A stretch of DNA of 64,000 nucleotides from Psammoneis japonica (lineage: Eukaryota). How positions within the stretch are numbered: position 1 is the first letter of the stretch; each line of letters starts with the position of its first letter. The position numbers were made by a program, and so were the translations under genes. The stretch lies in NCBI GenBank assembly GCA_008632985.1, contig QPGO01000083.1, positions 99,075 through 163,074 of the forward strand. Reading direction: 5' to 3'. The notes under the pieces are model-generated. The model had not been told where the DNA came from. It was given only the letters and a program-made list of their open reading frames with translations, and made no database searches. Below are positions 4,895-60,220 of this stretch, piece by piece.

Positions 4895-5302
4895 GATTCA
4901 CCAGGCAAAATTGGCAAAAGTCGGGTATGGCAAAAAGTGTGCATTTGGTCGAAATTGATCATTGAGTGCAAAGGTGGTATCTTTAGGGTCCCTTTAGTGA
5001 GCCGAACACGCACATTTCTCATTTGACCATCATAGGTCCGTCTCATGGGGGGTGTCAAAACGTCGTGCTTTGACGCGTCTCGAGGATTAATCGTTATATA
5101 ATATATTCAGCTGTTAAGGTTATATAAAATTGAAAATTCACACATTAAAGCACGACATTTTGACACCCCCCGAAGACGACCTGTGATGGTCACCCAGATG
5201 AGAAATGTGCGTGTTCGGGGACCCTAAAGATGCCACCATTTGCACTCAACAATCGATTTCGACCAAATGCACACTTTTTGCCCGAGTGTTGCCTGGTGAA
5301 TC
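4895..5302. repeat. Imperfect inverted repeat (arms about 4895-5078 and 5140-5302) around an AT-rich spacer
   Basis: gattcaccaggcaa...gcaaaaagtgtgcatttggtcgaaat...ccgaacacgcacatttctcat...ggggggtgtcaaaacgtcgtgcttt is matched by its reverse complement downstream. Confidence 0.85.
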
Positions 5303-6082
5303 GATGGATGCGGTGTCAATTGAAAAAATGCGATGGCAAGTCCTTCTTTTCCCACCGTGGCTGCAACACTTGTGCCGACACGCACCACTCTGCTCTTCAT
5401 GTGCTCATGTCGTGACTCTTGTCATTTTGGTGTGCTTGCAGCTGCTCATTGAAGAGTGCATCGCCCAAATTTTCTGACCTTGCTTTCTGTTGTTGTTCTG
5501 TTCTTGTTCGACGTTCAGCAACTCGCAACGCGCAGAGATGCAATTGCCGTGTTGCTGGAATCATCGTGTCATTGAATATGCATTTCTACCTGCAAATTGT
5601 GCCGCACCACTCTGTTTTTTTGTTTTTTTTTTTTTTTTTTTTTTTTTTTCTTTTTTTTTTTTGTTCGACGTTCAGCAACTCGCAACGCGCAGAGAAATGC
5701 AGCACTTCACAATCAATTGTGTGCTGCACCAGTGAGCCCTCTCTGTTTTTTTCGGCCTTGCTTTGACTGCTTGCTCAGCATTCGTTGTTTCTCTGCTTCT
5801 GCATCACAGACCTGTTCTTTTTTGGCGTTGCTGCAGCATCACGCCAGCTGGACAGCTCTGCTGCTGTCATGGGCAAAAAAGCTTCTTTTGTGCTGTTCTG
5901 CATCCCTCCAACCTTCTTTGGTTGCTGCTCAAGATTTTTGCTTTTTCAAGATGTCCACCTCTGATCCAGCGCCAATTGCAGAGGCACCGTCAAAGGTCCA
6001 GGCTGGTGATGGCTGTTTTTTGGTGGTGGGCTGCTGGGTTTGGGTTCCGGTGTTGATTTGGCGCTGACATCAATGGACAACC

Positions 6083-7550
6083 CTGCTGTTGGAGATGTGA
6101 ATTTTTGTTTCTTGCCAAGGAAGAGGTCTGCAGTTGCAGCCTCTTTTGATCAGGTTGTGCTCCCTGTTGGGGGGGGGGACTGACATGTCTTCTGGCTCTG
6201 CTGTTGGTGATTTCCTGCCTTTTGGTGCAATGCTGTTGCTGCTCACATGGGCCATGATGTGGAGAAGGAGGCCACCAAGCCTTGGCATTCCAAGGGTTTG
6301 GCAGTGAAGTGGGCAGGAACAAAGCTTGCAGACAATGTGACGGTGGTGGGCTCTTGTTGTTGCGATCACTCTTGGCTGCTGCTTTCTGTTGTGACGAAGG
6401 ACGAAGGACCATCTTTGGATGCCCAGGGTGTCATGCATGAGTTGTGACGTGATGAATCCAAGTGCGCCAAAGCAGAGCAGATGTTCTCTGAAGATGGGTT
6501 GTTGCTTGATCATTGGAAATCATGCTCTGTGGCTCATTTTGTTTTTCCAGACTTGGACAATGACCAACGGTGCAGCACCTCTCGCACCTCCATGCCTCAC
6601 TGTCAAGTGCAGTGCTCCGAGCTTTTTTTTAAGTGATGATGTTCGAGGTGGGCGCGGCACTCCTGGATGAGCCAGCCAGCTTCAACGCACACTCCAAAGG
6701 TGAGTGTGGCATCATGTGATGATGTGATGTTGCATGATGGCACCACATGATCTGTCGCACCCTCCAACAGCGCTCTGCTCTTGTTTGCTCTTTGTTTGTT
6801 TTGCACAGACTGCTGTTGGAGATGTGAATTTTTGTTTCTTGCCAAGGAAGAGGTCTGCAGTTGCAGCCTCTTTTGATCAGGTTGTGCTCCCTGTTGGGGG
6901 AGGGGGGGACTGACATGTCTTCTGGCTCTGCTGTTGGTGATTTCCTGCCTTTTGGTGCAGTGCTGTTGCTGCTCACATGGGCCATGATGTGGAGAAGGAG
7001 GCCACCAAGCCTTGGCATTCCAAGGGTTTGGCAGCGAAGTGGGCAGGAACAAAGCTTGCAGACAATGTGACGGTGGTGGGCTCTTGTTGTTGCGATCACT
7101 CTTGGCTGCTGCTTTCTGTTATGACGAAGGACGAAGGACCCATCTTTGGATGCCCAGGGTGTCATGCATGAGTTGTGACGTGATGAATCCAAGTGCGCCA
7201 AAGCAGAGCAGATGTGCTCTGAAGACGGGTTGTTGCTTGATCATTGGAAATCATGCTCTGTGGCTCATTTTGTTTTTCCAGACTTGGACAATGACCAACG
7301 GTGCAGCACCTCTCGCACCTCCATGCCTCACTGTCAAGTGCAGTGCTCCGAGCTTTTTTTTTTAAGTGATGATGTTCGAGGTGGGCGCGGCACTCCTGGA
7401 TGAGCCAACCAGCTTCAACGCACACTCCAAAGGTGAGTGTGGCATCATGTGATGATGTGATGTTGCATGATGGCACCACATGATGACATGATCTGTCGCA
7501 CCCTCCAACAGCGCTCTGCTCTTGTTTGCTCTTTGTTTGTTTTGCACAGA
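6083..7550 (+). repeat. Tandem duplication of a ~730-bp unit (6083-6809 and 6810-7550)
   Basis: Both copies begin ctgctgttggagatgtgaatttttg and end ...tttgttttgcacaga. They are near-identical. Confidence 0.95.
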
Positions 7551-10500
7551 CTGACGTCACTCCAATGGGTTCTTGCAAGTCAACGATGACTGCTCTTTGC
7601 CAAGCGCACGGGGTTTCAAAAGATCGTGGACCTTGTTTTTGGGCTGGGAACGGCAGACACCTCCAGTCGTCACCAGGTCATGTCGCTGGGTGTTGGGTGC
7701 ACCAGCAGAAGCTGTGCGTCTCAAGCTGGCAGTGAGTGCAGCACTGCATGTCCGTTGGTTGAGCCGGGTGCTGGCCACCCTGCTGCCCAGGCTCCAAGTC
7801 TTGCAACTGCAATTTTGTTCCTGATGGTGGGTCTGCTTTTTCTCACTGAGACGAGTCCCATCCAATGGCCCAGCACTCCAATGACTTGTTTCCTGGTTGT
7901 GTCTTTGCCGCTGCTCACTTTGGTCTCACCAACAAAGACAACCCTCTTGAGACTCACACCAACAAGCACAACCCAAATTGCTTTGATCCTGTGCAGTGCA
8001 ATCATGCCATCAAACTCTTTCTTTGTCTGGAGCAGTGGCAGTCGAAGGGAAGAGGACATGCCTTGTTTGTTTGGGGTGCAGTTGCTGAAGCCTGTTTTTG
8101 GCCAAATCCAAGACCCATCTTCATCAAGGCTGCATTGGCTGTGTTTGTCAAAAGTGCATGGAGTTGGGCAAGTTCCACCATCATCTTGATCATGAAGTGT
8201 TGTCGTGTGCATGGGGTCCCCGTGTGTTGAATGTGTGCCTGGCTTTGATTGCAGAAAAGTGCCGCACAATTTTGATCCCCATGGCTGCACCACATCCACC
8301 ATCTTGCACATCTTGAAGGCCTGAAAAGCACCGAAGCTGATCCACCCAGAAAAGACAGCACTGACAAAGGCCGCGGGTTGCATCCCCAACAGCACTTGTC
8401 ATTTCTGTGCCGCCACACACTGTGTCCCACAAGAGCCATCATTGAACAAGGCCTGTCGTCATGGTGTTCATCTTGGACATCTTGTTTTGCACTTGATGGT
8501 GGCCATCGACAAGAAGATCAGGAGCTGGGTTGCCCCCAGCACCCCATTGCTGCAGCCAGCACAAGCATCTCCCAAGACTCTGATGTTCCCAGAGCATTGT
8601 GAGTCATGCGCATGCTTGTTGAAAGCATCGGTGTGCTGTCCCACCAACAAGTCCATGCCCAAATCAGCTGCGTCTGGGAAGAAAGCTTTTTCAACACTTG
8701 CTCCTGCTGTCATCAAGGAATTTGATCAAGTCAGTGACCTTGGAGCAGCGCACTTGTTGCTTGGCATTCACGGCATGGTTTGCAGCTTCCCCAAGTGTTG
8801 CATGACCAAGATCAATGCAGATGAGTGGAGACCAATCCAGCGGCTCCACGAAAAATGCAAGGTTCCCACACCCGGTTTTGCAAAAAGTGGTTTGGATGTG
8901 TGGTTGACTGTTGCCTCTCCTGCCACAGGCTTTGCATTGCTTGGGTTGACAATGAGTTGACACTCCTGTGGCGGATGACATGCGTCAACCGTTGCGTGCG
9001 CGCTTCGCTGACCCGGCCCGGGTGTGCAAAGCGGGCCAAGTGATTTGGATTCAATTTGATCAGTTTTTGTTTCAACAAACCAATGGCTTTAATTGTGGCA
9101 TTCTGTGCAACAGGTTTCCTGTTCACCAGCTTCTTTAGGTCACGGCAATGCATGTCAAGCATGGGGGTTGAGTTGCTGCTTTCATCTTCGTCTTTGTCTC
9201 AGTTGTCAGCCCAATCTGAAGTGAGCGCTTTCTGGCTCATGATTGTGCTGTCTTCATTGCTCGATGGCTCATTGTCATGTGTGGACACACGGGGCAATTG
9301 AAGCACAGTGGAAGAGGTGAGTTCTTGACTTCATCAAATGAGTCCATTGTCAAACTGTCCTCATGACAAAGCTTGCTCAACTCAGGACATTGCGAAGGCA
9401 GGGTGTGGTCATGGCACAGGCAACCCTGTGTGCAGGTCTTGCTGTGGATGCATTTTTGAAAAGATCTGCAATGTTGCTTTTGTTGGTGTTTCAATAAGGC
9501 CAACTGCCACTGCACTGACCAAGAAAGGTGCCAAACAAAAGAAAAAACTGCGTGCAAGCTTTGAAAATGTGAGTGCTCACCAGCATCATGAGAGCATTTG
9601 GCCCAAGCCTGGGACACCCAGCATTTCACCTGCTTCTGCATGCATTCTCAGCACTGTTTCTTTCCATCAATGTGATGAAGATGATGATGACAAGAGATGG
9701 TGGCACCAAAAAATGCAACCCCACACATTGCAGCCATCAAGACCAAAACAAAGCACTTTTGCCATGAAGCAAGTTTGGCACCAGTCACAAACACAAGAGC
9801 CAAAAAGAGAGGCACATTCTCTGCCTGGGTGCAAAAACTTTTCATGGCCAAAGATCCAATCCACCTGCACAAAAGACATTGGGGTTTCTTTGTTTGCTTT
9901 CACATGCTTGGCTGTTCTCCATGAGATTGGACACACCAGTGTGCCAGGTTCTGCCACTTGCTCCAGCTGGGTGCTTTCTGTGGCACCACTGTTCCAGCTT
10001 TTGAACTTCAGCAGCTTCAAATTTGGCATTCGAGCCAAACACATCATAGCCAATGGTGGCATTTGCACCAGCAGTGCTCTGCTTGCACTGCTCTGTGATG
10101 CATGCAATTTTTGGGTTGTTTTGAGATGCTGGTGACTTGGCAGAAATTGTCATCTGTTGGTGACTGTCATTCTAACTCAGTTCAGGACCTGCCGGAACCC
10201 ACTGCCTTTGGCCCTGTGACTTTTGCAGCAACCCACAACCTTGGGTCCTGCAAGTTTGCAACCTGCAACCTTGGTTCTGCAGCTCAACACCCACAGCCTT
10301 TGGGGGTCCAGCAACTTTTGCAAACCCACCTTGTTGGGTCCTGTCTGGGACTTTTACAAAGACCTGCCACCTTGGGTCCTGCCACCCACAACCCAAATGA
10401 CCCCACAGGAGGCTCAGCACTGATGTTGTGTGTTGGAAAATTGGGGTGCAAGGTGGTTTTTGCAAAACACACAGATGACATTGCAGTGGATGATTTGCTG

Positions 10501-11458
10501 ACAGCTGTCAATGACACATTTTGGCAGCCAATGATGAGATGCAGATCTTGTGCTTGCTTTTTGGCTTTTGCACCCTGGCTGCTGACATGGCAGCAACAGT
10601 GGCAACAGAAACATGTTTGCACTCCATGCCTCAAGTTTGGGGTTTGGTGAGACCAAGTGAGTGTCAGCTGGTGAGCTGCAAAATTCCAACAACAAGAGAG
10701 AGCAGCTCATCACAGACACCCACATCACAGCATGGTGAAGCTCCAATGGCCTCCCAACCAACAGAATGGTCAGCCTGCTGGCAGAGCTCAATTGCCCATC
10801 TTCTCTGAACTGAGCCACTGGAGGCAACCCATGGTGTTTGGTGCCCTGGCATTTGGCACCCTCACATTTGCCTTCTCATGTTTGATGCTGTCATGTTTTG
10901 CATGTTTGGCAACCTCATGGTTTTTGCAAATGGCATGGAAGCCTCTGTGCACACTGCCCAGAACATGGCACCATAAATTGCAAGCACTGGTTGCTGCTTC
11001 AGGTGCTTCTGCTGTCATGACAGCACTGTCCTCACTGTGTGTTGATGCCTCATTTTAATCTCTTAGAAATGCACAGATGTCTTTGCCAAGCTGATTTGTT
11101 GAGCCAAGTTTCCTCAGGTCTGTGGCTGCACACACATCCCAACAAGGGGCAAGTCAAGGGATGCACTGTGGCCACCCACCATGCTCCACTCAAAGAAGAC
11201 ATTTATCTCAATTGTGGCTGCCCATCACAACCCACCACTCAAAGACACACATCTCTGTCACCATCAAAAGGAGCCTGTCACCACTGTCACTTTTGTTTGA
11301 CCTCTCCTTCCTCTGCCTGCAGCGATGACGCAAAAATTGCCCATGGCACTGTCTCCCAAATGCAAGCAAGAGGAACCATTGCAAAGGTGTGCAGCTCCAC
11401 CCTTGCATCTGCCATTTGCCAGCAAAAGAAGGCCATGTTGTGGAAGTGGCAATGCAAG

Positions 11459-11620
11459 CAACAACGACATAAGAGATGTGGTGTGTTGGCACCTTGTTGG
11501 GGAACTCTTGCACAACAACGACGTGAGAGATGTGGTGTGTTGGCACCTTGTTGGGGAACTCTTGCACAACAACGACACAAGAGATGTGGTGTGTTGGCAC
11601 CTTGTTGGGGAACTCTTGCA
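11459..11620 (+). repeat. Three tandem copies of a 54-bp unit
   Basis: caacaacgacNNNagagatgtggtgtgttggcaccttgttggggaactcttgca x3. The only variable segment is ATA/GTG/ACA. Confidence 0.95.
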
Positions 11621-12239
11621 TTGTCAAAGTTGTGCAAAGTTGTTTCACACGTGCAGTGTCATGGTTTTTGATTCTGCACCATTGGCCGTGTTGTTTGTGC
11701 TTTGGCTGTGGATCATCTTGGATGGAGTTCTGGTCGTGCGACACACAGCCTGCATGTCGCAGGGAGATTCATTTGGGCAACCTCTCACCGGCTCAACAAG
11801 TCCCATCCCCACCTGCACGAAGTCCCCCCATGTCCATGCGCAGGGTGCATCCTGCCCAACCACCCCACAAACAGCTCCCCCAAGTGTCTGATGGAATCTT
11901 GCTTTGAAGACTCGCATCTCCAAACACTGTCAGCTCAAACCAAAGAAGAACACAAGCATCAGCCATGGACAGCTTCGGCTCATCGTTGGCAAGTTTGCAC
12001 GTGCCCCTCCCCGGTTTTGCCAAGAGAAAGCAGTGGTTCCTCATCTTTGTTTCTTTTTTTTCAGGCAGTGAGGTTGCTTGGCATTGCTGCCATTTCTGAC
12101 AGTGTTCAGGAGGCTTTGTTGCTGTTTCTGCTGCTCAACAACATGTTTGGCTTCCCGCTTCATCAAGCAACAATCTGCATCAGTTGCTCCAGAGCTCTCT
12201 TGATGGCCTCCTTGTGCAGTTTCCAAAGCTCTGCATGAT

Positions 12240-13200
12240 GCATGGCATCACAATCGGCCCCAGAAGCAATCCCTCTCAATCAAAGGTTGACCTCATGCCT
12301 TGCTGCAAGAAGAGCCAAACCGGTGCCACAATCAAGTTTTGCTCTCAGAAGTGTCCTCCCAACAACACAGGTCACCTTCTTCTTAAATGTGATGTGCAAA
12401 ACACACATGACACCCAGGGCATCCAACATCCAAAGACGGATCCTTTGCCACAACAGAAAGTTTCAGCCAAGAGCGACCGTGACAAAAAAATCAGACTTTG
12501 CTGCTGAACCCAAATTGGGGCACTGGAGTGCCAATGCTTGGCAGTCTCCTTCTCCACACTGGCAGCCTCCTTTTCAACATGGTCCACACAGGAGCAGCAA
12601 GAGAAGCAACAGCTTCTGATGCACCAAAGGCACAAAAGGAATTGCCAACAGCACAACCAGAAACACAGCAGTCTTCTTTCCAACAGGGAGCACCACCTGA
12701 TCATCAGAGACTGCAACTGCAGACCTCTTCCCAGGCAAAAAACAGAAATCCACATCTCTGGCAGCAGGGCTGTTGTCTGTCAACATGAGAACCAAATTAA
12801 CACAGGAACCCAAACCCAGCAACCCACCACCAAAACAGACATCATCTGCCTGGACCTTGGATGACACCTCTCCAATTGGTGCCAGATCAGAGGTTGACAT
12901 CTTGAAGGAGCAAAAATCTGGAGCAACAACCAAATCAGGACCAAGGGAGGCAGAATGGGATGGGCAAAGCTTGTTTGCTGCAATGGCAGCAGAACTGTCC
13001 AACTGGCAAGACATTGCTGTGATGCCAAAAAAAAAGAACTGGTCTGTGATGCACAAGCAGAGAAGCAATGAATGATCAGCAAATGGTGGCAGCAAGACTG
13101 AAAAAAAAAACACAGAGGACTTGCTGATGGAGCAAATGATTGATTGTAAAGTGCAGTGTTTTCCCTGCATCACGCATTGCTCAACGTCAAATGAGAACAG
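12240..13200 (-). repeat. Dispersed repeat: diverged inverted copy of about 5690-6430; 12240-12400 also matches about 22030-22220 in inverted orientation
   Basis: Shared translated text (MSTSDPAPIAEAPSKVQA vs MSTSDLAPIGEVSSKVQA; SKVDLMP..QKCPPNN..LLKCDVQN vs SKVDTMP..QKHPPND..LLKCDVQN) and shared nucleotide blocks. Confidence 0.8.
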
Positions 13201-16200
13201 TGTTTTGGCAATGTGCCTTCAATTGTCCACTTCACCTGTCTTTCATTCCAGCTGCAGGCAGTTTAGCCACAGGCAATCCAACCCTCATCAAACCAAGTGT
13301 GAGCTGCATCCAAAAAATGAGTGTGCTCCTGCAAAAATTGGCAACACACTGTTTTGATCCGGGAGTGGTCATGCAAGGTGCATGTGTGTGTGGAGATTTG
13401 TGTGCATGCACTGCATGTCTTGTGAGTGAACTTGTTCTTTTCTGACTCTTCCCACTTTGCCTGTTTTGTTCAAACAGCTGTTCAAGGTGGCATGGAGAAA
13501 ACAGAGGCACTCCTGGAAAAGGAGTGGGGGGAACCATTTTGGTGCAAGCACAACTGTGCAGGTGTGCAAAAGTGACAGAATTGCACTGCATGTCATTTTC
13601 ATTCTTGCCAACTCTGCCACATTCTCTCCTTCTTCTCTTGTGTGCTGAACGGAGCACACAATGAGAAGGAGAATTCCACCCAGGTTGTCACCATGCAGCA
13701 ACCACAACATCCAGAAGAAATGGACAACAAATTGCCATCAGCCCTTGCAACAATTGTTGCACAAAATGCAGTCTCTGCTTTTTTCCCTGACACTCCACAA
13801 GATCTCTGGCACCACTGTCTGTGAAACTTCCAGGCCAGAAACACAATCCTTTTGGCAGCTTTTCTTGTTGGAACAGTGCAGAGCCATCAACAGTGGTGTT
13901 TTGTTCAATGTGGAATGAGCCAACACCAAACAGATGTTTGGAAAGAGGAGGGGAAGTGGCTTGGGGTGACTTCATTTCCCATCCAACCAGTTGTTCTTCA
14001 AGCCATGGCAGAATTGTCCATTCAAAGATTGCTGGCATCAACCAAGCAGTGGCTGGGATCAAATCAATCTGCTGCCAAGCCTGGCACAAGCCTTCTCACT
14101 GAACTTTATCACATTGGAAAATGTGGGATTTTGTCCCAGACAGCCTTCTCATTTGTAAGGTGTGGTGGCAGTGGACACCTTGGAGGTGATGCAACAACAA
14201 AACTTTCTTTCATTGCCTTGCATTTTGGGATGCTTTCAGAGTTCTTGATGATGGCTGCAAATGAAAAGGCTGCATGCTTTCATCCCATTGATGTTGTGGT
14301 GCATTGCTGAGGCCAGCCAACTCAACACCTCCTCTTTGTTGGCCAGAAAGTCTCAGGGCTTGTGCAAGTCAAGAAGCAGTGTTCAAACAAAATGCAATGT
14401 GGCTGCTTTGATGATGCCATGACTGCATGGCACAGCTCTGGATCTGCAGTCACCAGAGAGATCTAGTTGACTCAGCACCTCCTCTTTTGACAGGTGTTTT
14501 GGTTGCAACAACCATTCTCATGCCTGCCTCTAAGAGCCCCAACATGGCAAAGGTCCCTCCAACAATTGCTGTTGGTGCTGAGGCAATGCATTTGCAAAGC
14601 TTGCATGACTTCAGCTTGCAGGACATGGCAATGGGACTCAGATCAATGATGGGCTCAGCTTGGAGGACAATGTCATTAGAGCAGCACAACAACTCCATTG
14701 ACTGCAACACCTGACACATGCCTTGAGACCTGCTCCAACAGCGCGACTTTGCACCCGAGCCATTCTCCATCATGGCTGTGACTGTGCAGAATTGTCAAAA
14801 TCACCCAAGCATGCTCAAAGTTGGTGGTGGCAAAATGGACACAAAATGAATGTCCAAAGGCACCATCAAATGGATGCTCATTGACAAGATGAGATCAGAG
14901 CTGTTGCATGGCATGAGCTGGCTTGGGGGTTTGTGAAGCCACTGGCTGAGAGATGCCAGCAAACACATGTCATGAAGGCAAAGATGTGGTGGTGGTGAGG
15001 ACACATTGATTTTGCTCACAACTTGGCTGCAAAAGAAAGTCCTTGCATTTTGACCTTGATGGATGATGAGCGTTGCTGGGCAGAAATGCAAGTGCCATCT
15101 CTGGCCCATTTGGCGGAAGCAACAACATTGGAAATTGAGCCTGACAGTCAAAGCTTGCATGTCCATGAGATGAGTGGCAACAAGTGTTCAGTCAAAAGTC
15201 CTTCACAAAACCACCAGTGACCAAATTGTGAGCTGCCCAGACTGAATCTGCTGAGTGCACCAAACAGAGGTTCATCCACAGACTGTGCCAGAGACTGGCG
15301 CAAGCTTCAGGGTTGACCACTTTCACAACGATCATCCAAGCACTGCTGAACCAATCTGTGTTTGGTCTGACATCTGTGCAACACCTGTGATCCTCAAAGC
15401 AACCAGCTTGAGATTCATGTCGATGTGGCGCAAAAAGAACTTCAACCAGAATTCGGACCGACAGAAGTGCAGACACACAAGAGAATTTGGGGGTCGTTGG
15501 ACAGATGATGCACAACTCTCCCTCTCATTCACAGATTCCATCAACCAACAAAGAAATCACAAATGAGAAAGCTTGCACAATTGGTGCAAGTTCAGAGCGA
15601 AGCTCTTGCATCTTGACCAAGCCACAACATGCAACAAAGTCTGCCAGCAATTTTGTCACCACCAGCGCCAGGACCGGCACTTTCTCACCGTTGAATTGGC
15701 ATCTCCTTCAAGTCTGCAAGCCCGCCATTTGAATTGATCTAGAATGCTTGTCAACTCAGTGCAGGCAGTTTCACATGAGTTTAATCTTGAGTGCTTCGTG
15801 CTGAATGCACCTTGATCCACTTTTGGGTCTCCACCCAGCTGCTCTGTCCTGGATTTTTGGGCAGAAGTCAATGTCTTCGAATGTCAACAAGCTCTTCACG
15901 CAACAGCAGGTCCTCTTTCATGAAGTAAGAGCCTTACTTTTGTCTTTTTGCGTTTCATCGGTCAATGTTTACTTCGTCTTTGATGCTGTCATCTTGGTCA
16001 TGCTCAAAGAGGAGTCGTGCGTCCAGATGTGTAAGTTTCCGCGTGTGTGCATGCACGACCGACCCCGCGCGCGTTGCGTTGTGCACCACGCTAGTAGAGC
16101 ACGCTGCGACCCCGCGCGCGTTTTTTTATCCGCGTTCATCCACGTGCATCGTTCTTGCTCCAATCAAGCATGCTTCGGTGATGCGAACACAAAACAAAAA

Positions 16201-50239: not shown

Positions 50240-51934
50240 TCAGTAAACGGCCCTCCCTCCAGTGGCATCAAAGCAAAAGCCAGTCGTAAAGGCGGCTTCC
50301 GGAGAGGCAATGAAAGCAACTAGACTCGCTATCTCATCAATCGTTCCACACCTCTTCATCGGAATTTTGTCAGTCATGTACTTCACCTGTGCAGCAGGCA
50401 TGTCTTCCACCATTTTCGTCTTTACTACAGCAGGTGCAAGAGCATTGCAGGTGATGCCGGTCTCGGCGTATTCTTTTCCAATCGTCTTTGTTAAACCAAT
50501 CACGGCCGCTTTGCTGGTAGAGTAGGCTAGCATCCCTGCGTTACCCTCCTTCCCGGCAATGGACGCAATGTTCACTATGCGTCCATAACCGCGATCCTTC
50601 ATGTAGGGAAGCACAGCTTTGCATCCATTGAAGATACCCTTGACGTTGACACGAAAGACGGCGTCAAAGTTGTCAGGATCAACGTCTTCAGTCTTGAGGT
50701 TTGTTGCTCCCACAATTCCTGCAGCCTGCACTAGAACATCGATACGACCACCGTTGCCTCCCGCAATACTCCTCCATGCATGAGAAACCGCTTCAGTGTC
50801 TGTTACATCGCAGACAACGGCGTCAAACTGACAAAATGAAGCAACGTGCTGCAGCTTGGAGCACGCTATGTTGAGCGTGTCTTGGTCCAAATCAACAATC
50901 GTAACACAGGAAGCTCCCTCCAGACCAAGTCGAGCGGCAATGCCGTACCCGATTCCACGAGCACCACCAGTGACAATGCACGTCATGCCCTGGAGGCGAC
51001 CAGAGAGCAATGGCTTTGCGAGCTCAGCAATTTTTTCTTGTAGTGGTTGCTGAGGTTCCACAATCGGTGTAACCAGGGTCCCAATGCCGTCAATCTCGCA
51101 CTCGACGATGTCACCAGGTACAAGCCATCTTGGAGGATTACGAAAGCACCCCACTCCTGGAGGCGTTCCGGTTGCGATAATGTCTCCAGGATATAACGTC
51201 ATGAATCTAGATATGAATGCTATGAGCGCGTCAACCTTGAAGACAAGTTCTTTTGTCGAGGAGTCTTGGAGTACCTCACCATTGACACGGCACCGAATTC
51301 CAGTATTATGAACACTTTCAAGTGTCATTTCATCTTGAGTGATAATGACTGGACCAATCGGAGCATATCCATCTACGGCTTTTCCGAGCAACCATTGACC
51401 TCCGTTCCGTTCAAGCTGCCAATCTCTTGCCGAGACATCGTGTACCACCGTGTAACCGCCAATGTGATTCACAGCTTTTTCTCGTGGTGTATTTCGAGGA
51501 ACTGTCGTTCCAATGACCACACCAAGCTCCACTTCATAGTCAAGCTTTTCGGTCGTTTCGTCTTTTGATACCGGATCACCTGGTCCAACCACGCAAGAGC
51601 CAAATTTCGAAAAGACCAGCGGTTCTTCTGGAATCGGAACATTTTGTTCAGTGCAATGATCAACATAATTCATTCCAATGCAAAGGAACTTTCCAACGAG
51701 CGACCCGTCAAGCGGAGCAAGAATACGACAATCTTGTGAACGCACGTACAACGGGCTTTCAGGAGTGCAAGATTCAATGAGAGAGTTTGCTCGAGAAATC
51801 GCTTCCGGTCCAGCAGCCAAAAATGCTCTTGCATCAGGAGAAATCGACGAAAGGTCACAGTACCCTTCAGCATTTGGGATCTGAGCGGCGAGTTTCACCT
51901 TGCCGAGGTGGGCAACGCTTGCGAGACGGACCAT
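50240..51934 (-). CDS. Fusion of an FAH-family hydrolase and a classical short-chain dehydrogenase (SDR)
   Basis: CIGMNYVDH..E...FSK...LDYEVELGVVIG...HDVSARDWQ...GK..D...PIGP...PGDIIATGTPPGVG (FAH), then VTGGARGIG...NIASIAG...YSTSK...FDATGGRAVY (SDR). Intronless; likely ATG at 51934. Confidence 0.92.
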   Translation of the reverse strand: MVRLASVAHLGKVKLAAQIPNAEGYCDLSSISPDARAFLAAGPEAISRANSLIESCTPESPLYVRSQDCRILAPLDGSLVGKFLCIGMNYVDHCTEQNVPIPEEPLVFSKFGSCVVGPGDPVSKDETTEKLDYEVELGVVIGTTVPRNTPREKAVNHIGGYTVVHDVSARDWQLERNGGQWLLGKAVDGYAPIGPVIITQDEMTLESVHNTGIRCRVNGEVLQDSSTKELVFKVDALIAFISRFMTLYPGDIIATGTPPGVGCFRNPPRWLVPGDIVECEIDGIGTLVTPIVEPQQPLQEKIAELAKPLLSGRLQGMTCIVTGGARGIGYGIAARLGLEGASCVTIVDLDQDTLNIACSKLQHVASFCQFDAVVCDVTDTEAVSHAWRSIAGGNGGRIDVLVQAAGIVGATNLKTEDVDPDNFDAVFRVNVKGIFNGCKAVLPYMKDRGYGRIVNIASIAGKEGNAGMLAYSTSKAAVIGLTKTIGKEYAETGITCNALAPAVVKTKMVEDMPAAQVKYMTDKIPMKRCGTIDEIASLVAFIASPEAAFTTGFCFDATGGRAVY

Positions 51935-52069
51935 GGTGAAGCGTATCTTCGGATTTTCGCAATCGCTGCTGTTATCGCTGTCCCACAAGATTGCCCATGT
52001 TTTTACTGCGCGTTCAGCGTGAAGCGCGCGCCAAAAAAGCTGTGACAGACGTCAATCTGGAAATCGGAT

Positions 52070-52206: not shown

Positions 52207-52212
52207 TCTTAT

Positions 52213-52908
52213 ATGAGTGAAGCAGAAGCAAGAGGTGTTGGCAGAGCAGCATTGTCATCGAAAGGAGACGAAGGCGGTGCCACTAAGAGCGCGCATCATG
52301 ATGAATGGCAGCAGAATTCGAATCGCGGGTGGGATTACATGAGCATCTACTGGACATTTGGTTTAGCCATTGGCAAGATATTTGGATATCTACCGCTTCA
52401 ACCACTGCTGCTGCATGACAATGAGGATGCCCTACTACACTTCACTGCTACTTTGGTTGTGACCGCAGCCGCCCAACCCATCATTTTGCGTCGTTACGGT
52501 CATTTTGGTCGCGAATTCGATGTCGGAGCTTTCCTTATCTTCCCCATTTGCAATGGCATTTTTGAAACGATTCTATTTTTGGCGTCGTACGACGTCGGAA
52601 AGTGGTTGTCACAAGTTGCTTTTGGAGTAGAATCAAACCTCTGGATAGCTCGCGGTGTCGGTTTCGTCACGTTTAACGTGTACTCGGCTCTCATTCACGC
52701 ACTCTTCTGGCTTCGTCGAGCATTACCGCGACACACGTTGCCCGACGCATCTCCATTCCATCAACAAATGCTTCCTGCCTTGTTGGTTGTTAGCATCTCG
52801 TGGCTGGCCTGGCATGAATTGCAAGGCACTGTGGCGGAAGTTTGCCTGTTACACGGTCTTGTCAATGCTATGTACGTGGTAAAGATACGTCTACCTGGCC
52901 CATTTTAG
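52213..52908 (+). CDS. Multi-pass membrane protein, weak CPBP/CAAX-protease-like motifs
   Basis: 231-aa ORF with normal dinucleotide composition and several hydrophobic segments. Motifs NGIFETILF, SALIHALF and LLHGLVN. Confidence 0.6.
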   Translation: MSEAEARGVGRAALSSKGDEGGATKSAHHDEWQQNSNRGWDYMSIYWTFGLAIGKIFGYLPLQPLLLHDNEDALLHFTATLVVTAAAQPIILRRYGHFGREFDVGAFLIFPICNGIFETILFLASYDVGKWLSQVAFGVESNLWIARGVGFVTFNVYSALIHALFWLRRALPRHTLPDASPFHQQMLPALLVVSISWLAWHELQGTVAEVCLLHGLVNAMYVVKIRLPGPF

Positions 52909-53109
52909 CCATTTTCCTTTTCAATAAAGTAATTGTTACCTTTATAGCATGGTAGATAAATGTGATGCCTACAGTATCGACATTGCTCTGTTACTTTTCA
53001 CCTTGCAAACTTTGCCTCTCGCGTGCCGTGCCATTGTACACTTTTTCCGCGTTCACATTGTTTTCCATCAAACTTGACTTCGTTGACATTGCGATAGATT
53101 CTAGATCGA

Positions 53110-56100
53110 TCCGAGAGAGGTGAGTGATCAAGCCAATGAGCATGTTGCACTCTTTGTGAAGAGGGCATCACACTGGCTAGACCTCACCGCATTGACACTC
53201 GCAACAAATGCAAGTGAAGACCCATCAGTGGCAAAAAATGTCACCCAGATCTATGGTCTCTAGTGGTGGGGAATGGCTCCTGCATTCAAATCACTGTTCA
53301 CAACTGTCTGAGCCACAGATGATTTGTTGATCTCCCAAGCAATTGCACACTGAGTTGGCCACCAATTCTGCACCCAACTTTTTTCAAACAGGAGGTGAGA
53401 ACTGGGGGCCCAGCATCTGTGCAATGCCCCAAAGGGCACCAAAGATGCTTGCATTGGCCAGCAGTGCAGATGACATGGTCTGTGGCAATCTTAAAACCAG
53501 GGCAAGTGCAGTTAGAACGCTGCTCCATGACCCACTTGCAGCTTCACACTGTGCCGGTGTCAACTCAGCAGCCACAGAACCGCTTTGTCACAGTGAGCTT
53601 TGGAATCCTCCAACTGCTCTCCTGCCATTTTCTGTTCAGCCTTGCTCTTCTCATGTTTGAAACCATCCGTGGGAAGCTTTTCATGTTGGTCTTCAACTTT
53701 TGCATGCTGTTTTGCTCAGTTGTCATGCTCAAGACACCTTGTGTGTCTCTGGCGCTGATCGATGCTCTCGAGTTGTGAAGTGGCTGTCTTCATCCGGAGA
53801 ATTTCAAGCAGCATTCCGTGCACTTGTTCTACAGCTCAACTTGTGCACAGCACCAACCAAGTGCAGAATCAAGTGTGGCAAAAAATGCTGGGTGTGCCTC
53901 CTTGAATTCCAGCAAAATGCTTTCACCTTTGCTTTCTGGGCTGTTGCAAGAAATGCAAAACCCACTCCTTCTCCATCTCCAGCAGCTTGGCAAAGCCTGT
54001 TTCCAATTGTGCTGGCTTGCCAGCCAGCAGGTCTAAATCCCCCACAATGAACCTCAAGCCATTTGAGTGCTCCAGTGAGAAATGCAACAGGGCCCTGGCA
54101 AAGCATGGGTCCTGCTCACTGAGAAGAAGAATCAAAAATGTGTTGGACTCATTGAAGCAGTGTCATTTGATCTTGACCAACTCCCAGCATCCAGCTTCAA
54201 GCTCAGACAAGACTTGCTCACTTCATTTCTTGAACCACTTTGTCCTTTGCTTTCAACAAAGATGCAAAATTTTTGAGAACAAGTTCTCCTGTTTTCTTCC
54301 ACAAAAGTGGCTCAAATTTGAAAAAGAAACCATGTGCTTCCATCATCTCAAATCCTGGAACTTTTGACAAAAGACCATTTTGTGAGGGCAAAGCTTTTGC
54401 CGGCTCAAAACACAAGCCCATCTCTGACCCAAATTGCACCATGACCCAGATGCCAGGCCCAAACATCAACTCAGTGCAATGCTCCAATGCACGCCCTTGG
54501 CATGAATTGCCCACCAACTGCTTTGCCATTTCTTGTGAGACAATGAATGACAAAAAAGTTTCTTCCCTGCCACAGTCTGCATGATGCAGCAAAAGGAGGT
54601 GCTTGCAAATTTGTTGGTTGACACACCATCAACGCTGCTGTCATTCCACACAACAGATTTCTTCTGCCACAAAGATCAGCCAGTGCTTTGTGTCCTTTCA
54701 GTCCATTGCAGAAAGACTGGATGAGCCAGCAAGAATGATCACAATTTTCTTTGTGGTTGTTTTGGCCCACATGGTCACCAAATGCAGCAAGCAACACCCA
54801 CATCATGACCAGGTTTGTAATGTGAAAAGAATCATCCAAAAAAATCACCCGCCATGCAGCACAATTTGCCCACCACAGAAGATTGAGAAGTGGCAGCACT
54901 GCTTTCTTAAAAATCTTGTGGGCAGTTTTGAAAGCATGTTGGGAGCATTGTCTGTGGCCACCCTCTGTCACAGTGTTCAAATGCATTGGCAGTTCCAAGG
55001 CTCTCTGTTGGGGCAGCAATGTGGCAGCTTTGGTGGCAGCAAGATTGGTGTGCAACACTTTGTTCCTCCAAAATGCTTGGAGTTGACATCACAGGAACAA
55101 CATGGCATGCTGTTTCCATGCCAGTTCTTTGCTGTTACATTCTTCCTGAAATTGTCCTGCAGATGAAAAGTGCCAACCACATCTGGTTGTCACAGATGGT
55201 CTCAAAAGGTTGACAAAAACACAAACTCATCTTTCACATGGGATCTTCCAAGAAAGTGTGTGCTGCAAGGGATTGCAAGAGCCCACCAACTCAGATGAAG
55301 GAACTCATGGCAAAAATGAATGTGACAAATGACATGCACAGCAAAGTCTCAGATGCCCCATGTTTTGCTTTGCAAGTGGGTGAAGTTTTGATGGAGCAAA
55401 ACACTCTTGTCTCAACTGTGCCACTTCACATGATCCAGCAAGTCCACCAACTGCTCATTGTCCAATGATTTCAAAATTCAGCATTGAAGAATTTCTTCAT
55501 GGACAACCTGGACATTCTGCCTTGATGTCTGCAACTCACAATTGCCCATCTCCATGTTGCACTTTGTGATGGTGTCCTCTGATGATGGCTCAAAACCACA
55601 CTTTGCACTGGCTCCAAATGCCAACTGCTCTGCAACATTTTCATTGATGTTGTCTGCAGGAACACTTCATAAAAAGATGAAAGTTTAGAGAAGCTGAGGG
55701 AAATTGTCCAAATGTTTGAAAAAACATCTGGGAGCCACTTCTTCTTAAATCTTGACAAGGTGAATGCATTGGAGCCTTTTCTTGGAAAGGCAGGCAATGA
55801 AATCTCCCTGTCACACACATTGTGGCTTGTGGTCACAAATCAACACAATTGACAACTTGATGGACTTGGGAAGTGTTTTGTTTGGGTTGCTCTCCTTCCC
55901 TTTTTCTTCTCAGCAAAGGATGTCTTGTGCAGCAAGGAAGCTTGCATTCTCCTGAGAATGCCAAATGCATTTTGTTAGACTCCCTGCAAAAGGAGAGTGT
56001 GTGAGAGATTTTTGTGTCATTCTTGAACAGAGTTGAAAATGATTTCATTGATCATTTGCATGAGGTCACCAGTGGAGTGTCTTGGCCCATTGAGCATGCC

Positions 56101-59100
56101 GTCAACTTTTTCACATGTCATCTGTCAGACAGTGAGATTGCTTCACAAAGAGAAGGAAGGATTTCTTGTGCAACTTGGCCCCTTTTGTGGAACACCTCAG
56201 TCTTGGTGCCAATGAAGAAATGAATCCTCTCAAAAGGATGAAAAAGGACACAAGAGACTTTTGTTTGGAGTTGATTTGAGTTGCTGCCTTGCCGCTGCCT
56301 CTGTTGCCTGCAAAAAGGATTGATGGAAAATTCTGAGGTTTCCAAGGCAAAGTCATGACACTGGAAGTGTGCAGTGTGTTTCTTTTGCATGTGCAGCAAA
56401 GGAATGCAAACCATCATCTTTTGGTCAACCCCCTCCCCCCATCATGACTGCAAAGAATGTCATGAATGCTTGACTTCCCTTTTGGACCTCTCTGCAGAAC
56501 GCATGTCCCACTCAGGCATGGGGACAGAATCCTGGCAATGTGCCAGAGGTCATGATGCCACATGTTCTTTGCCAGCATGTCAGTGAGGAGCTCCACTGCA
56601 AACCTTGGTCTCTTGGCAAGTGTCCACCTTTCTTGAGAGGATCCATCATCAGTGATGACACTTTTTCCTCAAAGATCTTCAAAGTCTTTCCAAAGATCAC
56701 GTGCACCCCAGCAACTGGAAATTGGATTGCTCCACTGTGCAAATTCAATGACAATCTATCCTCTGCTGGTTCTGAGGATGTCAACCCATGAAACTTGCCC
56801 AAAGTCATTTTGTTGCTCAGGAATGGAGCATTCTGCATTCTTTGGCCCAAGTCTTCTTCTGTCAACCTGCTGTTTAAAATGAACAAATGTGTCATCATTA
56901 AAGTGCAGTTCAAGAGCAGAAAGCAGAAGGTCAATTTGGCCATGCTGGTGGAAGAGCTTCAGAATCATGCTGTCTGTGCTGCAACAAAAGGAGCATTTTG
57001 TTTGCATTGATTGGGCTGACAATGGTGGAGGAAGAGCCACCAGTTGGCGAGCTCATCACTGACAATGCAAGCAACAAGATTTAACTGCATTGTGGCAAAG
57101 GGACTGCTTTTGCTGGTGTTCTGGTCCCCACTAACTTGGAAGTTGTTTTTGTTCTGACAACAGGCCTGGAGACATTTTTGATGAAAGAGGATGTTCAAAT
57201 CCTGCCGAAAGACAAACTGGATTTGCGACATGGCCTTGGCAACATGGTGGCCTTCAAAACACACCCCTGTGGTGGGGGAGCTGTGTGTGTGTTCGTGATT
57301 GCGCACGCACATTGAGTTTCAATGTTGATGTCCACATGCATGTGCACATTCCACAAGCAAAAATTCCTGTTCCACAGCTCCCCTAAAACTCTGACCACCA
57401 AAAACCAAGGGTGCAGAAACGCACTTTTTGGAAGACAGTGCACACACCAAAACATCACGCGTTTCGACGACTCGACCATGACGACCTCCCGTTCTTCATC
57501 CCCCACACCACCTGATGTGTGCCCGCCTGCCGTTCCTGACACAGCAGTCTCTCCCATGTTGGCCGGTGCCATCAAACCCGCTGTTGTAACCCAAACACAG
57601 CAGATTTGCAATCCTGAAGTTTGGGCCCACTTTCATCGGATCCAAAATTGACCGTGGACGACATTGCCACCATTTGTCATTGAGTGCCACAATCAAGCAC
57701 AATGCAACAACAAGGCGAAACCATCCCACTCATGCTCTGACTGATGTGGATGCAAGCGGGCCTGGTGGTGGCAGAGCGAGGCGATTTTGCTTGGAACAAC
57801 AAAGGCATGGGATCAACAAGCACCAATGCACTGGTCAATGCTACTTGCATGGGCGTGGGCATGGCAGAGGAGCGTCTGTGATGGGAGGCACGGTGACAAC
57901 TTTTCTCAGGATGATTGTTCCCAAGCAGATCATCCTCTGTCTGGAGGTGATTGAGGCGCACCCAGAGCCCAGTGGAGCCAATTGGAGCCAACAACAGGTG
58001 TCAAGATGAACTGCAGCAACATGTGAAGGAGGATGCAGCCAATGGAACACGGGCAGAGAAGGTGCCGGCATGCAAAGTGGCAGCACAGCTGTCGACATGG
58101 CACTGGTTTTGAAGGTCTAACAGGGGTTTTCTGTGTTTGCCAAAAGCACGTTGCTGCCTGCCTCCATTTTAGCAACCTACAAAAACAGCATGTTGTGCAT
58201 CACATGTGGAACTCAAATGGCGAGAGTGGCCTCTCATGGAATTGCACATGATGACCCAGTCCTGGAAAACAGAGCAGTGTCCAAGCCACATGCACCACTT
58301 GAAACCTTGCCAAGTTGCCTGCAAACAAATGCCAGTTTGCTGACCTCTCCAACTTGAAACTAAAAACCGTGAAAGCATGCTTGCCATCCAATTGTTGTCA
58401 GGTTTCTAATTTACACAGAGCTGCACAATGTGTCTGTACATTCTAAAGATTAGACTGCACTCAAGAGCTGACCAAGAGGCACTGTTTATGTCCATTGATG
58501 TGTCGTCCATCAGCAGGCCATGGTTGCGTGGGTTTCCTGGTCCGCCATCATCCATTGTGCTCCTTCTAAAGCAAAAACAATGACAGCATCAACAGCACCT
58601 GTGGCAGCAAGGGTGGGATTAACAGTGTCGAGCATGCCAGGGGGTCGAAATGCAGGTGCGGCGTTGGAATTCGTGACAGTGTCTGTGGGAGGCGGTGGGG
58701 CGAGAATGAAAGAAGTGTGAGTTGTTGGCACTTCATTGTGGACAACAACAGTGTCAACAGCACCTGCAGCAGCAAGGGCAGGAGCAACAGCATTGGGCAT
58801 GCTGGGGGCCCAAAATGCAGGTGTGGCTTTGGAATTCGTGACAGCATCTGTGGGAGGCGGTGGAGCATGCAAACAACAGTGTGAGTTTGCAGCATCTTGT
58901 TTTGCATGTGTCACACCCACAAGAACTGGAATGATGACATCACCTGTTGTGTCAGTGTTGTTGGCAACGGCATCAACAGGATCAGCATCCTGGGAAGGCA
59001 ATGGGGAAGAACCATGAGGCATCATCATGGTCAAGTCGTCAAAACGTGTGTTTTTTGTGCGGAGAAAAGAGCTGCCAAAAGTGCACTTCCGCACCCTCGG

Positions 59101-60220
59101 TTTTTGGTGGTCAGAGTTTTAGTGGAGAATGTGGCTCAGGATTTTTCCTGCTGCTGTTAGCATTTGTGTACAAATTCATGAACAAATGTAAGAACATTTA
59201 CATGAAAATGTGATGAATGAGATGTAAACTGCCACGCAACCATGACATCACCACATTCTCCCCTGCCACAGGGGTGTTCAAAACAACAGGGAGGATGCCA
59301 CGTGCCACCCAAAAGAATTGATCCCTCAAAGAACCTGCAGTGACTTGAGCATTTGAGAGGGTGACTCATGCATGGCCATCCCACCACCCATTCCGATGGA
59401 TTCTCCTCCACACAGCAGGTTCCTCATGGCAGGTTCCTGTCAGCACAACACAGACTTCAACATGGGCTGTTCTCCATGAACCTTTTGTGCCACCAATTTC
59501 ATTCTGTGTTGGACCTGAGTGTTTAAAACATGATGCAGTCTTGGACAGTTGGTGGCACTGGGTGGAAAACCCCTGCATTTGGCACAATGCATGGCCAACA
59601 CTGGGTTTCATTCTTGCCACCAACGATTTGAGCCCGTCTTGAGAAACTGACACAGTGGCCAACTTGCACTGGCTCAGAGTCAAGAACTCTGTGATGTGTG
59701 CCATGTTCACTTGGCTCTCATTCAAACTCTCTTTTGGCTTTGTTGAGGATGACCACGACACACGTTGCCCCCCCCCCCCCCTCCGTTCCATCAGAGCAAA
59801 TGACCCCAAAACCTGCTGCCTGCTGCTGTTGTCTGGGCTGCGGGTGCAGGGGTCACTGCAGATGAGCTGGGCCTTGATGGATTGATGCACAAGTGAAATA
59901 AAAACCAGATTGGAGCACTCAGGCTCTTGCTTGTGTCCTTGTGTGATCCACTCTTCTTGCTGAGTTTGTTCAATCCTTTGGCTTCCAGGTGGATGGCAGT
60001 CGCAGCTGCAGTGCGGACTCGCCCAATGCAGCAGTCTGTCCACTCCATTCCCTCTTGAGTGTCATTCTCTCATTTGATCCACAGCACTTTGTTTCTTGTT
60101 CATTGGACAATCACATCAAGCTTGTGGAGCTTTCAGCACAAGTTCTCTGTGTCTTGCTGGACTCTGGATTCCCCGGCAGTCCTGAGGCGTCAAGAACCCT
60201 GGCGACGAACCCATTGTAGA
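53110..60220. other. TpA- and CpG-depleted degenerate repeat domain
   Basis: Manual count finds about 43 TA dinucleotides in about 7.1 kb. Edges against the normal genes on both sides are sharp. Confidence 0.85.
57262..59276. mobile_element. Non-autonomous Mutator-like element, 2.0 kb, ~250-bp imperfect TIRs, 9-bp TSD
   Basis: TTCAAAACA|CACCCCTGTGG ... CCACAGGGGTG|TTCAAAACA. The arms share ctaaaactctgaccaccaaaaacc.agggtgc.gaa. Confidence 0.85.

Follow-up and report, generated by a model that had tools for sequence, protein, structure and literature searches.

The window analysed here comprises 64,000 nucleotides of contig QPGO01000083.1 from Psammoneis japonica and belongs to the nuclear genome of a raphid pennate diatom; in it, segments with genes alternate with long blocks that are almost free of the dinucleotide TpA. 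Two-state segmentation of the TpA observed/expected ratio (o/e) in 200-bp bins called three such blocks: block 1 at 5201-16800 (40 TA; TA o/e 0.054, CpG o/e 0.32), block 2 at 19601-44600, a composite of several elements (152 TA; TA o/e 0.105, CpG o/e 0.58, the latter varying from 0.08 to 1.1 along its length), and block 3 at 53201-60200 (41 TA; TA o/e 0.086, CpG o/e 0.21). Together they occupy 43.6 of the 64 kb, and their limits lie nearly where a preliminary description of this DNA, made by eye from the letters, had placed them. A small depleted repeat that the same description had noted between normal genes is also real (49701-50000; 2 TA in 300 bp, TA o/e 0.12, CpG o/e 0.25). Its proposed gap in block 2, at 26.9-27.3 kb, is indeed less depleted, yet with 9 TA per 400 bp it is not normal either. 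Normal segments had a TA o/e of 0.50-0.57 and a CpG o/e of 0.77-0.94 in the segmentation, and the intervening genes (16.8-19.6, 44.7-53.2 and 60.2-64 kb) had the ordinary TA content that had been ascribed to them, with o/e values of 0.46-0.65.

The sliding-window comparison of TpA and CpG o/e, carried out over the 64-kb window, set near-TA-free blocks against normal genes. In 1-kb windows, the TpA o/e was 0.00-0.2 across most of 5-16, 20-44.6 and 53-60 kb and 0.4-0.8 elsewhere, while the o/e of TG and CA reached 1.4-2.8 in the low-TpA windows and was about 1.6-1.8 per block. We counted 224 TA in 42.8 kb of blocks where the flank rate predicts 1503. The longest TA-free run measured 1727 bp, and the transitions at block edges took about one 100-bp bin. 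The depletion is therefore confirmed as real and extreme. A dinucleotide mass balance of blocks against flanks revealed changes of -0.035 for TA and -0.023 for CG (sum -0.058) and, closely matching this loss, of +0.061 for TG+CA. In addition, AT (ApT 0.053 versus 0.064) and AA/TT were lower and GC and GG/CC higher, which are the expected side effects of A/T to G/C changes beside other bases.

The loss of TA also altered the reading frames. Stop triplets in the blocks were TGA 1905, TAA 216 and TAG 113 (total 2234), compared with 799, 379 and 317 in normal DNA. A change of TA to TG or CA cannot make an in-frame stop and deletes TAA and TAG; dead elements consequently keep very long open reading frames (ORFs), such as those of 715 and 632 aa, and spurious ORFs are numerous. 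Indeed, 243 of the 300 ORFs of at least 90 aa in the window overlap blocks.

The right end of block 1 (15.9-16.8 kb) is partially depleted (TA o/e 0.20), as is a stretch to the left of this block (3818-4900; TA o/e 0.22). A Thr/Pro/Ser-rich ORF of 840 aa (15929-18451, plus strand), with 48-bp tandem repeats at 17525-18166, has its first 870 nt within the partly depleted DNA (TA o/e 0.20, CpG o/e 1.05), and this upstream part of the frame is probably an artificial extension through missing TAA and TAG stops. An imperfect palindrome of 354 bp (4929-5282; 76% self-complementary) lies exactly on the left edge of block 1.

Elements within the TpA-depleted blocks

Pfam searches of 242 stop-to-stop block ORFs of at least 90 aa returned one MULE, one weak Plavaka-like and one 2-oxoglutarate (2OG) oxygenase match; four sub-threshold matches (SPT23_MGA2_DBD, Med16_C, ATP_synt_H and WD40) were disregarded as weak. 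The preliminary description had spoken of unrelated classes of transposable element. MULE, Plavaka-like and reverse-transcriptase (RT) elements are affected, although most block ORFs have no Pfam match and the classes can be verified only in part.

The MULE transposase remnant (20634-21812, minus strand; TA o/e 0.06, CpG o/e 0.15) contains no Tyr in 393 aa, with 5.1% Cys and 5.1% His. A count of conserved Tyr was dropped for this remnant since its homologues align over only about 110 aa, with two Tyr-frequent columns, one of which is Cys here; two Phe-consensus columns read as His. The Plavaka/KDZ-like DNA-transposase ORF (31350-32693, minus strand) has a weak Pfam match (E 3e-3) and four homologues with E values of 7e-42 to 7e-92. 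It keeps none of nine conserved Tyr, of which four are His and one is Cys.

An RT element of 6.2 kb (35903-42102, plus strand; TA o/e 0.14, CpG o/e 0.83) has a 195-bp direct repeat at either end (35903-36096 and 41908-42102), the two copies being 93% identical. It carries two plus-strand ORFs: one of 715 aa (36900-39044), whose C-terminal 267 residues align with the N-terminal part of RT-family proteins, and one of 632 aa (39140-41035) with the RT core (YVDD) and 246 homologues, some of them with Pfam PF00078.

Near the right end of block 2 lie two fragments that are not mobile elements. The first is the C-terminal half of a 2OG-Fe(II) oxygenase (44304-44762, plus strand; Pfam; TA o/e 0.08), a pseudogene without Tyr in which Arg and Leu stand at the positions that match, in a relative of solved structure (6jyv), the His of the His-x-Asp motif and another His further on, which we take to be iron ligands. 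The second, at 43990-44200 on the minus strand, is a fragment of 180-200 nt of a bacterial-type (organellar) large-subunit (LSU) rRNA (Rfam RF02541, 108.9 bits, E 6e-34), that is, an organelle-type gene fragment within nuclear DNA and inside block 2. An Rfam scan of 43-45 kb (2 kb) missed this fragment, and a 211-nt scan detected it.

Block 1 contains an inverted repeat with arms of about 600 bp (5664-6244, plus strand, and 12601-13191, minus strand; about 75% identity), in which 16 of the 44 adjacent double differences are CA/TG. It also contains a tandem duplication (6083-7553; about 730 bp, 97% identity, six mismatches of which five are transitions). Merely two aligned sites in this duplication have TA (one TA/TA, one TA/TG), so that it arose after the loss of TA. 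Depletion thus extends over DNA transposons (MULE, Plavaka-like), the RT element, the pseudogene, the LSU rRNA fragment and all non-coding DNA between them.

Comparison with relatives and the origin of the depletion

For the RT family, 65 related loci from public metagenome contigs were available for comparison (738 1-kb windows). Their TA o/e was 0.38-0.84 (median 0.63), and the lowest value among the 738 windows was 0.25; in the 64-kb window, by the same measure, 169 of 253 windows were below 0.25 and 106 were below 0.1. Since the family has normal TA and the copy in this window has a TA o/e of 0.14, the copy was changed. In agreement with this, its 632-aa ORF contains 0.5% Tyr, 3.0% Cys and 6.3% His, compared with 0.97-2.91% Tyr (median 1.93%) among the 120 homologues listed and about 0.2-1.7% Cys in 40 of them.

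The direction of change was polarised by comparing the two RT ORFs with 60 homologues and the Plavaka-like ORF with its four, which gave 688 clear-consensus columns. At 18 conserved Tyr columns, Tyr was kept in 3 and replaced by His in 6, by Cys in 4 and by other residues in 5, while 453 of the 670 remaining residues were kept (Fisher p 1.7e-5). Other conserved residues were well preserved (Phe 22/25, His 18/20, Cys 8/9). The claim that conserved Tyr codons read as Cys or His thus held where it could be tested, in 10 of 15 altered Tyr columns. Among single-transition changes, a 5' T was present at 14 of the 18 A>G changes and a 3' A at 12 of the 17 T>C changes, which places 26 of 35 polarised A:T>G:C changes at TpA.

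The LSU rRNA fragment provided a further polarised comparison. A deep contig of the public runs matches 44005-44183 alone, with depths of 1887, 1274 and 9.3 in three runs where genes have about 60, and this contig of the same sample was taken as ancestral. It differs from the window at 17 positions, 12 of them listed. Ten of these 12 are A or T in the reads and G or C in the window; the other two are G>A, one at CpG. Of eight TpA, six had changed, half of them to TG and half to CA in interleaved order, as against 4 of 77 other A/T sites, and the two survivors are in TTAA and TTAC. We therefore consider it well supported, and probable, that the TpA depletion reflects a process of mutation.

A three-base context rule

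The survival of TA relative to the flanks depended strongly on the neighbouring bases (ATAT 0.010, ATAC 0.033, GTAC 0.059, CTAG 0.15, CTAA 0.38, TTAA 0.61). An additive half-site model, which gives each possible base 3' of the A its own parameter and takes account of both strands, fitted the ten distinct tetranucleotide contexts with an R2 of 0.98 and gave hits of 2.18 for TAT, 1.42 for TAC, 0.84 for TAG and 0.26 for TAA. The ranking was unchanged when the 65 RT loci served as an independent baseline. Because TpA is self-complementary, the rule describes equally well a T whose preferred 5' neighbours rank A > G > C >> T. This neighbour rule (TAT > TAC > TAG >> TAA) emerged from the present data and, as far as the text available to us goes, is absent from the one report with a comparable signature, a preprint on the chlorarachniophyte Bigelowiella natans (Mettrop et al., bioRxiv 10.64898/2026.01.13.699255, 2026).

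CpG decay in the same blocks

Two processes are superimposed in the blocks, one that turns TpA into TpG or CpA and the ordinary decay of CpG to TpG or CpA. The CpG o/e fell to 0.21-0.58 in the segmentation, and among single-transition changes C>T had a 3' G in 16 of 21 cases and G>A a 5' C in 10 of 16, so that 26 of 37 G:C>A:T changes were at CpG. Deamination of 5-methylcytosine (5mC) yields TG and CA like the TpA process and is present in the same blocks, but it cannot remove TpA; it explains part of the gain in TG and CA and none of the loss of TpA. Change of Arg to Cys, His or Gln through CpG decay is likewise frequent in block ORFs. The excess of TG and CA and the gain of Cys and His therefore belong only in part to the loss of TpA: the loss of Tyr is real, but the preliminary description had not separated it from Arg to Cys/His changes through CpG decay.

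The two processes were only weakly correlated over 40 1-kb block windows (Spearman 0.48 for TA versus CpG o/e). The median TA o/e was 0.097 where the CpG o/e was at least 0.35, and 0.055 where it was lower. Almost no TA is thus left even in windows that show little loss of CpG, and the RT element, with its TA o/e of 0.14 and CpG o/e of 0.83, is a case in point; the TpA process was therefore faster, or earlier, than the decay of CpG.

Change of DNA on both strands after insertion

Copies of the same sequence within the window differ at TA, TG and CA sites, as had been noted from the letters. In nine in-window repeat pairs, aligned sites were TA/TA in 5 cases, TA/TG in 4, TA/CA in 5, CA/TG in 38, CG/CG in 35 and CG/TG or CG/CA in 35. 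The CA/TG doubles were not accepted as proof of TpA loss, being ambiguous with CpG decay. In the terminal repeats of the RT element, TA faces TG at one site, CA faces TG in two double differences, and CG faces TG or CA at five sites, and such differences between the ends of one insertion indicate that change continued after the element had inserted.

Both strands were affected alike. TG and CA numbered 1312 and 1241 in block 1, 2363 and 2680 in block 2, and 774 and 769 in block 3, and their order along the blocks showed no runs (|z| <=2.3 in runs tests). A processive single-strand mechanism was rejected since strand-coordinated tracts of TG or CA were not found at this threshold. Equal numbers of TG and CA, the lack of runs and the variety of targets together argue against a route through RNA editing as well as against a processive single-strand event. 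The process has a fixed direction and context, works on both strands, acts on DNA after insertion and is restricted to domains. This upholds the core of the preliminary description: in one specific context, TpA, A:T is changed to G:C on both strands, the genes nearby are left alone, and the direction is the reverse of that in fungal repeat-induced point mutation (RIP). The same description had called the change a conversion of A to G, with a DNA adenine deaminase as one example of a cause; the A:T>G:C change at TpA stands, whereas A and T as the attacked base, and a deaminase as the agent, are not distinguishable from sequence.

Read support, targeting and neighbouring genes

Contigs of three public sequencing runs of one sample (X1-X3) were placed on 40-60 kb. 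A 4484-nt contig from the Logan assembly of run X1, with a depth of 63, covers 52814-57291, from which it deviates in 19 letters and 6 gaps, where an estimated 140-160 differences or so would be expected if the reads had TA at flank frequency. This separately assembled contig thus reproduces the TA-free part of block 3. Moreover, the blocks show frameshifts, CpG decay and divergent copies, like old dead elements.

Summed depth in run X1, which does not equal copy number and is used as a hint only, was 63-67 over 53.3-56.7 kb, as over genes, and 500-6200 over other parts of the blocks. Over a Crypton/NDC10-like tyrosine-recombinase ORF of 716 aa that lies between blocks (47145-49295, plus strand), it was 700-1670, or 12-28 times that of the flanking genes. 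This ORF, which resembles NDC10_II/GCR1_C clusters (score 0.98), has a TA o/e of 0.65 and a CpG o/e of 0.91. The view that the change is restricted to repeats therefore stands in so far as it is confined to blocks of mobile and junk DNA, but it does not cover the single-copy depth at 53.3-56.7 kb, the affected pseudogene and rRNA fragment, or the spared high-depth Crypton-like element. The escape of this element, together with the change of the pseudogene and the rRNA fragment, suggests chromatin or silencing state as the target, and we infer that targeting follows this state and not repeat homology as such.

Contigs of run X2 over the Crypton-like ORF skip five segments of 72-95 nt with CT..AC ends (GT..AG on the opposite strand), with joints between 48029 and 49057. 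To judge from these ends, the joints resemble those of an antisense transcript that is spliced across an ORF left intact in the sense direction. The depleted blocks had next to no cover in the X2 contigs, which has no bearing on their expression.

The remaining genes of the window are of ordinary composition. A fusion of fumarylacetoacetate hydrolase and short-chain dehydrogenase lies between blocks (50240-52051, minus strand); its best named relatives are from Nitzschia inconspicua (71%) and a Pseudo-nitzschia (69%), with other matches up to 82%. Most of the 120 homologues listed retain both domains, and the named ones are mainly from diatoms. The assignment of the window to the nuclear genome of a raphid pennate diatom follows from this gene and the other ORFs between the blocks. 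Domain searches further identified an FG-GAP repeat ORF (18310-19392, plus strand), a leucine-rich repeat (LRR) ORF (61317-62372, plus strand) and a gene combining SAD/SRA (E 4.5e-31) with a TFIIS/Med26-type helical bundle (45535-46656, minus strand). The last of these is located about 0.9 kb off the edge of block 2; SRA domains bind methylated cytosine.

Discussion

The explanation that best accounts for these observations, and that we hold to be likely, is a TpA-directed hypermutation acting at the DNA level in dead mobile and junk domains, as a second, stramenopile case of the signature reported from Bigelowiella. In such a process, the A:T pairs of 5'-TA-3' would be turned into G:C inside sharply bounded domains, giving TG where the top-strand A is changed and CA where the bottom-strand A is changed. 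The changes would occur independently at each site and on both strands until almost no TA is left, with an efficiency that falls in the order T > C > G >> A of the 3' neighbouring base, which would spare most TTAA. As no in-frame stop is made, ORFs would stay open while every Tyr becomes Cys or His, and a slower, 5mC-type decay of CpG would run in the same domains.

A dedicated enzyme would presumably be responsible. The candidate that we prefer, tentatively and at less than even odds, is an adenine deaminase of the TadA/ADAT2 fold that acts on chromatin-marked DNA and converts A to inosine, which is read as G. In a broader form, to which we also give less than even odds, diatoms and chlorarachniophytes, and perhaps more of the stramenopile-alveolate-rhizarian (SAR) group, may have a dedicated editor of double-stranded DNA. 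Chromatin or small RNA would guide it to silenced invading DNA (transposons, integrated viruses, organelle inserts and pseudogenes), where it would turn A:T into G:C at 5'-TAB-3'.

Several points weigh against a TpA-directed hypermutation or limit its reach. The evidence is that of one 64-kb window, and genome-wide generality, copy numbers and the enzyme repertoire lie beyond it. Runs X1-X3 all derive from a single sample that may also have supplied the assembly, and their platform is unrecorded, so that the read comparison is supportive and not fully independent. The relatives behind the consensus are only 35-64% identical, 157 of the 235 changed columns are transversions or multi-step changes, and 9 of the 35 polarised A:T>G:C changes fall outside TpA. 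In the LSU rRNA fragment, 5 of 17 differences are unlisted and, among the 10 listed changes from A/T to G/C, 4 lie outside TpA. CA/TG doubles also arise from CpG decay, which by a hand estimate accounts for about 11 of 27 (in seven calibratable pairs, two of them poorly aligned). The context model takes the ancestral tetranucleotide frequencies to have resembled the ones seen in the flanks or in the RT family. Furthermore, a high-depth Crypton-like element without mutation is a targeting outcome that the hypermutation as such does not explain. For the preferred enzyme, finally, the low rank of TAA in the 3' preference misfits the tRNA substrates of ADAT2/3.

The strongest alternative, although an improbable one, concerns the attacked base. 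A TET/JBP-type dioxygenase could oxidise the T of TpA to 5-hydroxymethyl- or 5-formyl-uracil in silent chromatin, with mispairing to G and T>C as the outcome. Since TpA is self-complementary, all of our results are described just as well by T>C, with A > G > C >> T as the order of preferred 5' neighbours. In dinoflagellates, 5-hydroxymethyluracil (5hmU) is found preferentially in TpA and TpC; 5-formyluracil promotes A:T>G:C changes, and fungal KDZ/Plavaka transposons, relatives of which are represented by the Plavaka-like ORF within block 2, travel with TET/JBP genes. Against this, no TET/JBP domain was found in the window, where the sole 2OG oxygenase is a dead fragment of the iron/ascorbate type, and a literature search combining '5-hydroxymethyluracil' with 'diatom' returned only dinoflagellate papers among the matches listed. 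To our knowledge, 5hmU paired with A is not strongly mutagenic.

An artefact of base-calling or assembly, in which true TA with a repeat-specific base modification is read as TG or CA, is very improbable. The unrecorded platform of the assembly and of the runs from the single sample would allow it, and the depletion is context dependent, as errors of base-callers can be. On the other hand, the k-mer contig of X1 (4484 nt, depth 63) agrees with the assembly, and contigs of this kind require accurate reads; the frameshifts, the decayed CpG and the divergence between copies in the blocks also speak against it, as does the appearance of the same signature in the mutation-accumulation lines of B. 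natans described in the text of the preprint (10.64898/2026.01.13.699255).

Hyperediting of RNA from A to inosine by an ADAR-like enzyme, followed by reverse transcription and reinsertion, is scarcely credible. The 5' T matches the 5' U preference of ADAR that is cited in the preprint (10.64898/2026.01.13.699255), and one affected element is a retroelement. Yet DNA transposons, the pseudogene, the organelle rRNA fragment and spacers are equally depleted, the two strands are affected about equally and in an interleaved manner, and the terminal repeats of one insertion differ at TA/TG and CA/TG sites. A 3' order of T > C > G >> A is also unlike the 3' G preference of ADAR.

Just as hard to credit is a native or selected composition, be it a TA-poor foreign source, selection against TA-targeting nucleases or TA-site insertion, or GC-biased gene conversion combined with CpG decay: CpG decay does add TG and CA, and the GC content of the blocks is slightly raised with GC and GG/CC up, but the RT relatives have normal TA, the TA of conserved Tyr codons and of the rRNA fragment was demonstrably present in an ancestor and has since been lost, selection of this kind does not act on dead pseudogenes and ApT is just mildly lower, and gene conversion is not specific for TpA as most of the polarised A:T>G:C changes are.

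With regard to a TpA-directed hypermutation, what is new here is a second lineage, saturation, targets that include transposons, a pseudogene and organelle DNA, the three-base rule, independent changes on both strands, coexistence with CpG decay and the escape of an apparently multi-copy element. If it holds genome-wide, a mutational defence known from a single rhizarian preprint of 2026 also operates, in saturated form, in diatoms, a major and ecologically dominant group that is partly transformable. The observations point to a natural enzyme by which A:T in chromosomal DNA is turned into G:C within a defined three-base context, and we know of no such enzyme. In the broader form outlined above, it would represent a natural adenine (or thymine) base editor serving as heritable genome immunity and a mirror of fungal RIP, erasing Tyr while leaving frames open. 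The search for it would become tractable if lineages that do and do not show the signature were compared for their sets of deaminases and dioxygenases, and natural DNA-editing defence may be widespread. On the practical side, the annotation of diatom repeats is affected, since hypermutated elements lose Tyr and escape Pfam (3 clear matches in 242 ORFs). Long open ORFs in such blocks are no evidence of function, and the TpA o/e can be used as a simple genome-wide marker of silenced DNA.

Comparison with known systems

Fungal RIP, as in Neurospora, shares with the process described here dinucleotide-specific transitions at the DNA level that disable mobile DNA in sharply limited segments and leave a strong bias. 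It differs in its direction: RIP changes C:G to T:A (CpA>TpA), raises TpA and AT content and makes stops, whereas in this window TpA is lost, GC-type dinucleotides are gained and TAA and TAG are removed. RIP also depends on duplication. The blocks have sharp edges, but they include single-copy-like depth at 53.3-56.7 kb while the Crypton-like element is unmutated at high depth, with the reservation that depth is not copy number.

ADAR and APOBEC3 likewise cause an enzyme-driven, context-biased hypermutation of selfish elements, and the 5' U preference of ADAR resembles the context found here. They act on RNA or single-stranded cDNA in strand-coordinated tracts, and APOBEC alters C; in this diatom DNA, both strands are changed without tracts, DNA transposons and spacers are affected, and the 3' order is T > C > G >> A.

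TadA and ADAT2-ADAT3 naturally target A34 after U33 (5'-UA) in tRNA, where A becomes inosine and is read as G, and adenine base editors have been derived from them. By analogy, this 5'-UA context may correspond to the requirement for TpA. Unlike the process at this locus, these enzymes act on tRNA, and a 3' rule with TAA as the worst context does not obviously fit the A35 anticodons of ADAT2/3 substrates. No deaminase domain was found among the 261 ORFs scanned in the 64-kb window.

The closest known case is that of B. natans (Mettrop et al., 10.64898/2026.01.13.699255). A literature search yielded no report of TpA hypermutation for diatoms (one apparent match, PMC4504042, was rejected since 'Tpa' there stands for 'Tpase'), and diatoms are absent from the preprint in the text available to us. 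The preliminary description had taken the system to be undescribed, which no longer applies as the same TpA>TpG/CpA signature is reported there. According to that text, two integrated viral regions mutate about 1000-fold faster in mutation-accumulation lines of B. natans, in only some of the lines. The changes in these regions, which consist of nucleocytoplasmic large DNA virus (NCLDV) and virophage DNA, are nearly only A>G and T>C, with every GC-biased change on TpA. The genome has 124 clusters that are poor in TpA and rich in CpA+TpG, defined as at least three 1-kb windows whose Rho(TpA) is at most 0.43 and whose Rho(CpA+TpG) is at least 1.52, and TpA-poor coding sequences are enriched in DDE and RT domains. 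Its authors suggest an ADAT2-like adenine deaminase and cite the 5' U preference of ADAR; the mechanism is given as unknown to them.

Several differences separate the two cases. The host there is a rhizarian and here a stramenopile, and giant-virus inserts there stand against transposons, a pseudogene and an organelle-DNA fragment here. In B. natans, TpA is at 0.45 in the NCLDV region, and the cluster cut-off is 0.43, while the diatom blocks are near-saturated at 0.05-0.10. CpG decay and a 3'-neighbour rule accompany the change in the diatom, which is known from standing sequence and not from a measured rate. By the cluster definition of the preprint, the blocks described here, of 11.6, 25 and 7 kb with a TA o/e of 0.05-0.10 and TG/CA of about 1.6-1.8, nevertheless all qualify as TpA-poor clusters. 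Both systems make A:T>G:C changes focused on TpA that appear as TG or CA depending on the strand, both leave TpA-poor clusters with transposase and RT domains, and in both these are found in foreign or mobile DNA only, with host genes spared and, in the diatom, the Crypton-like ORF as the exception.

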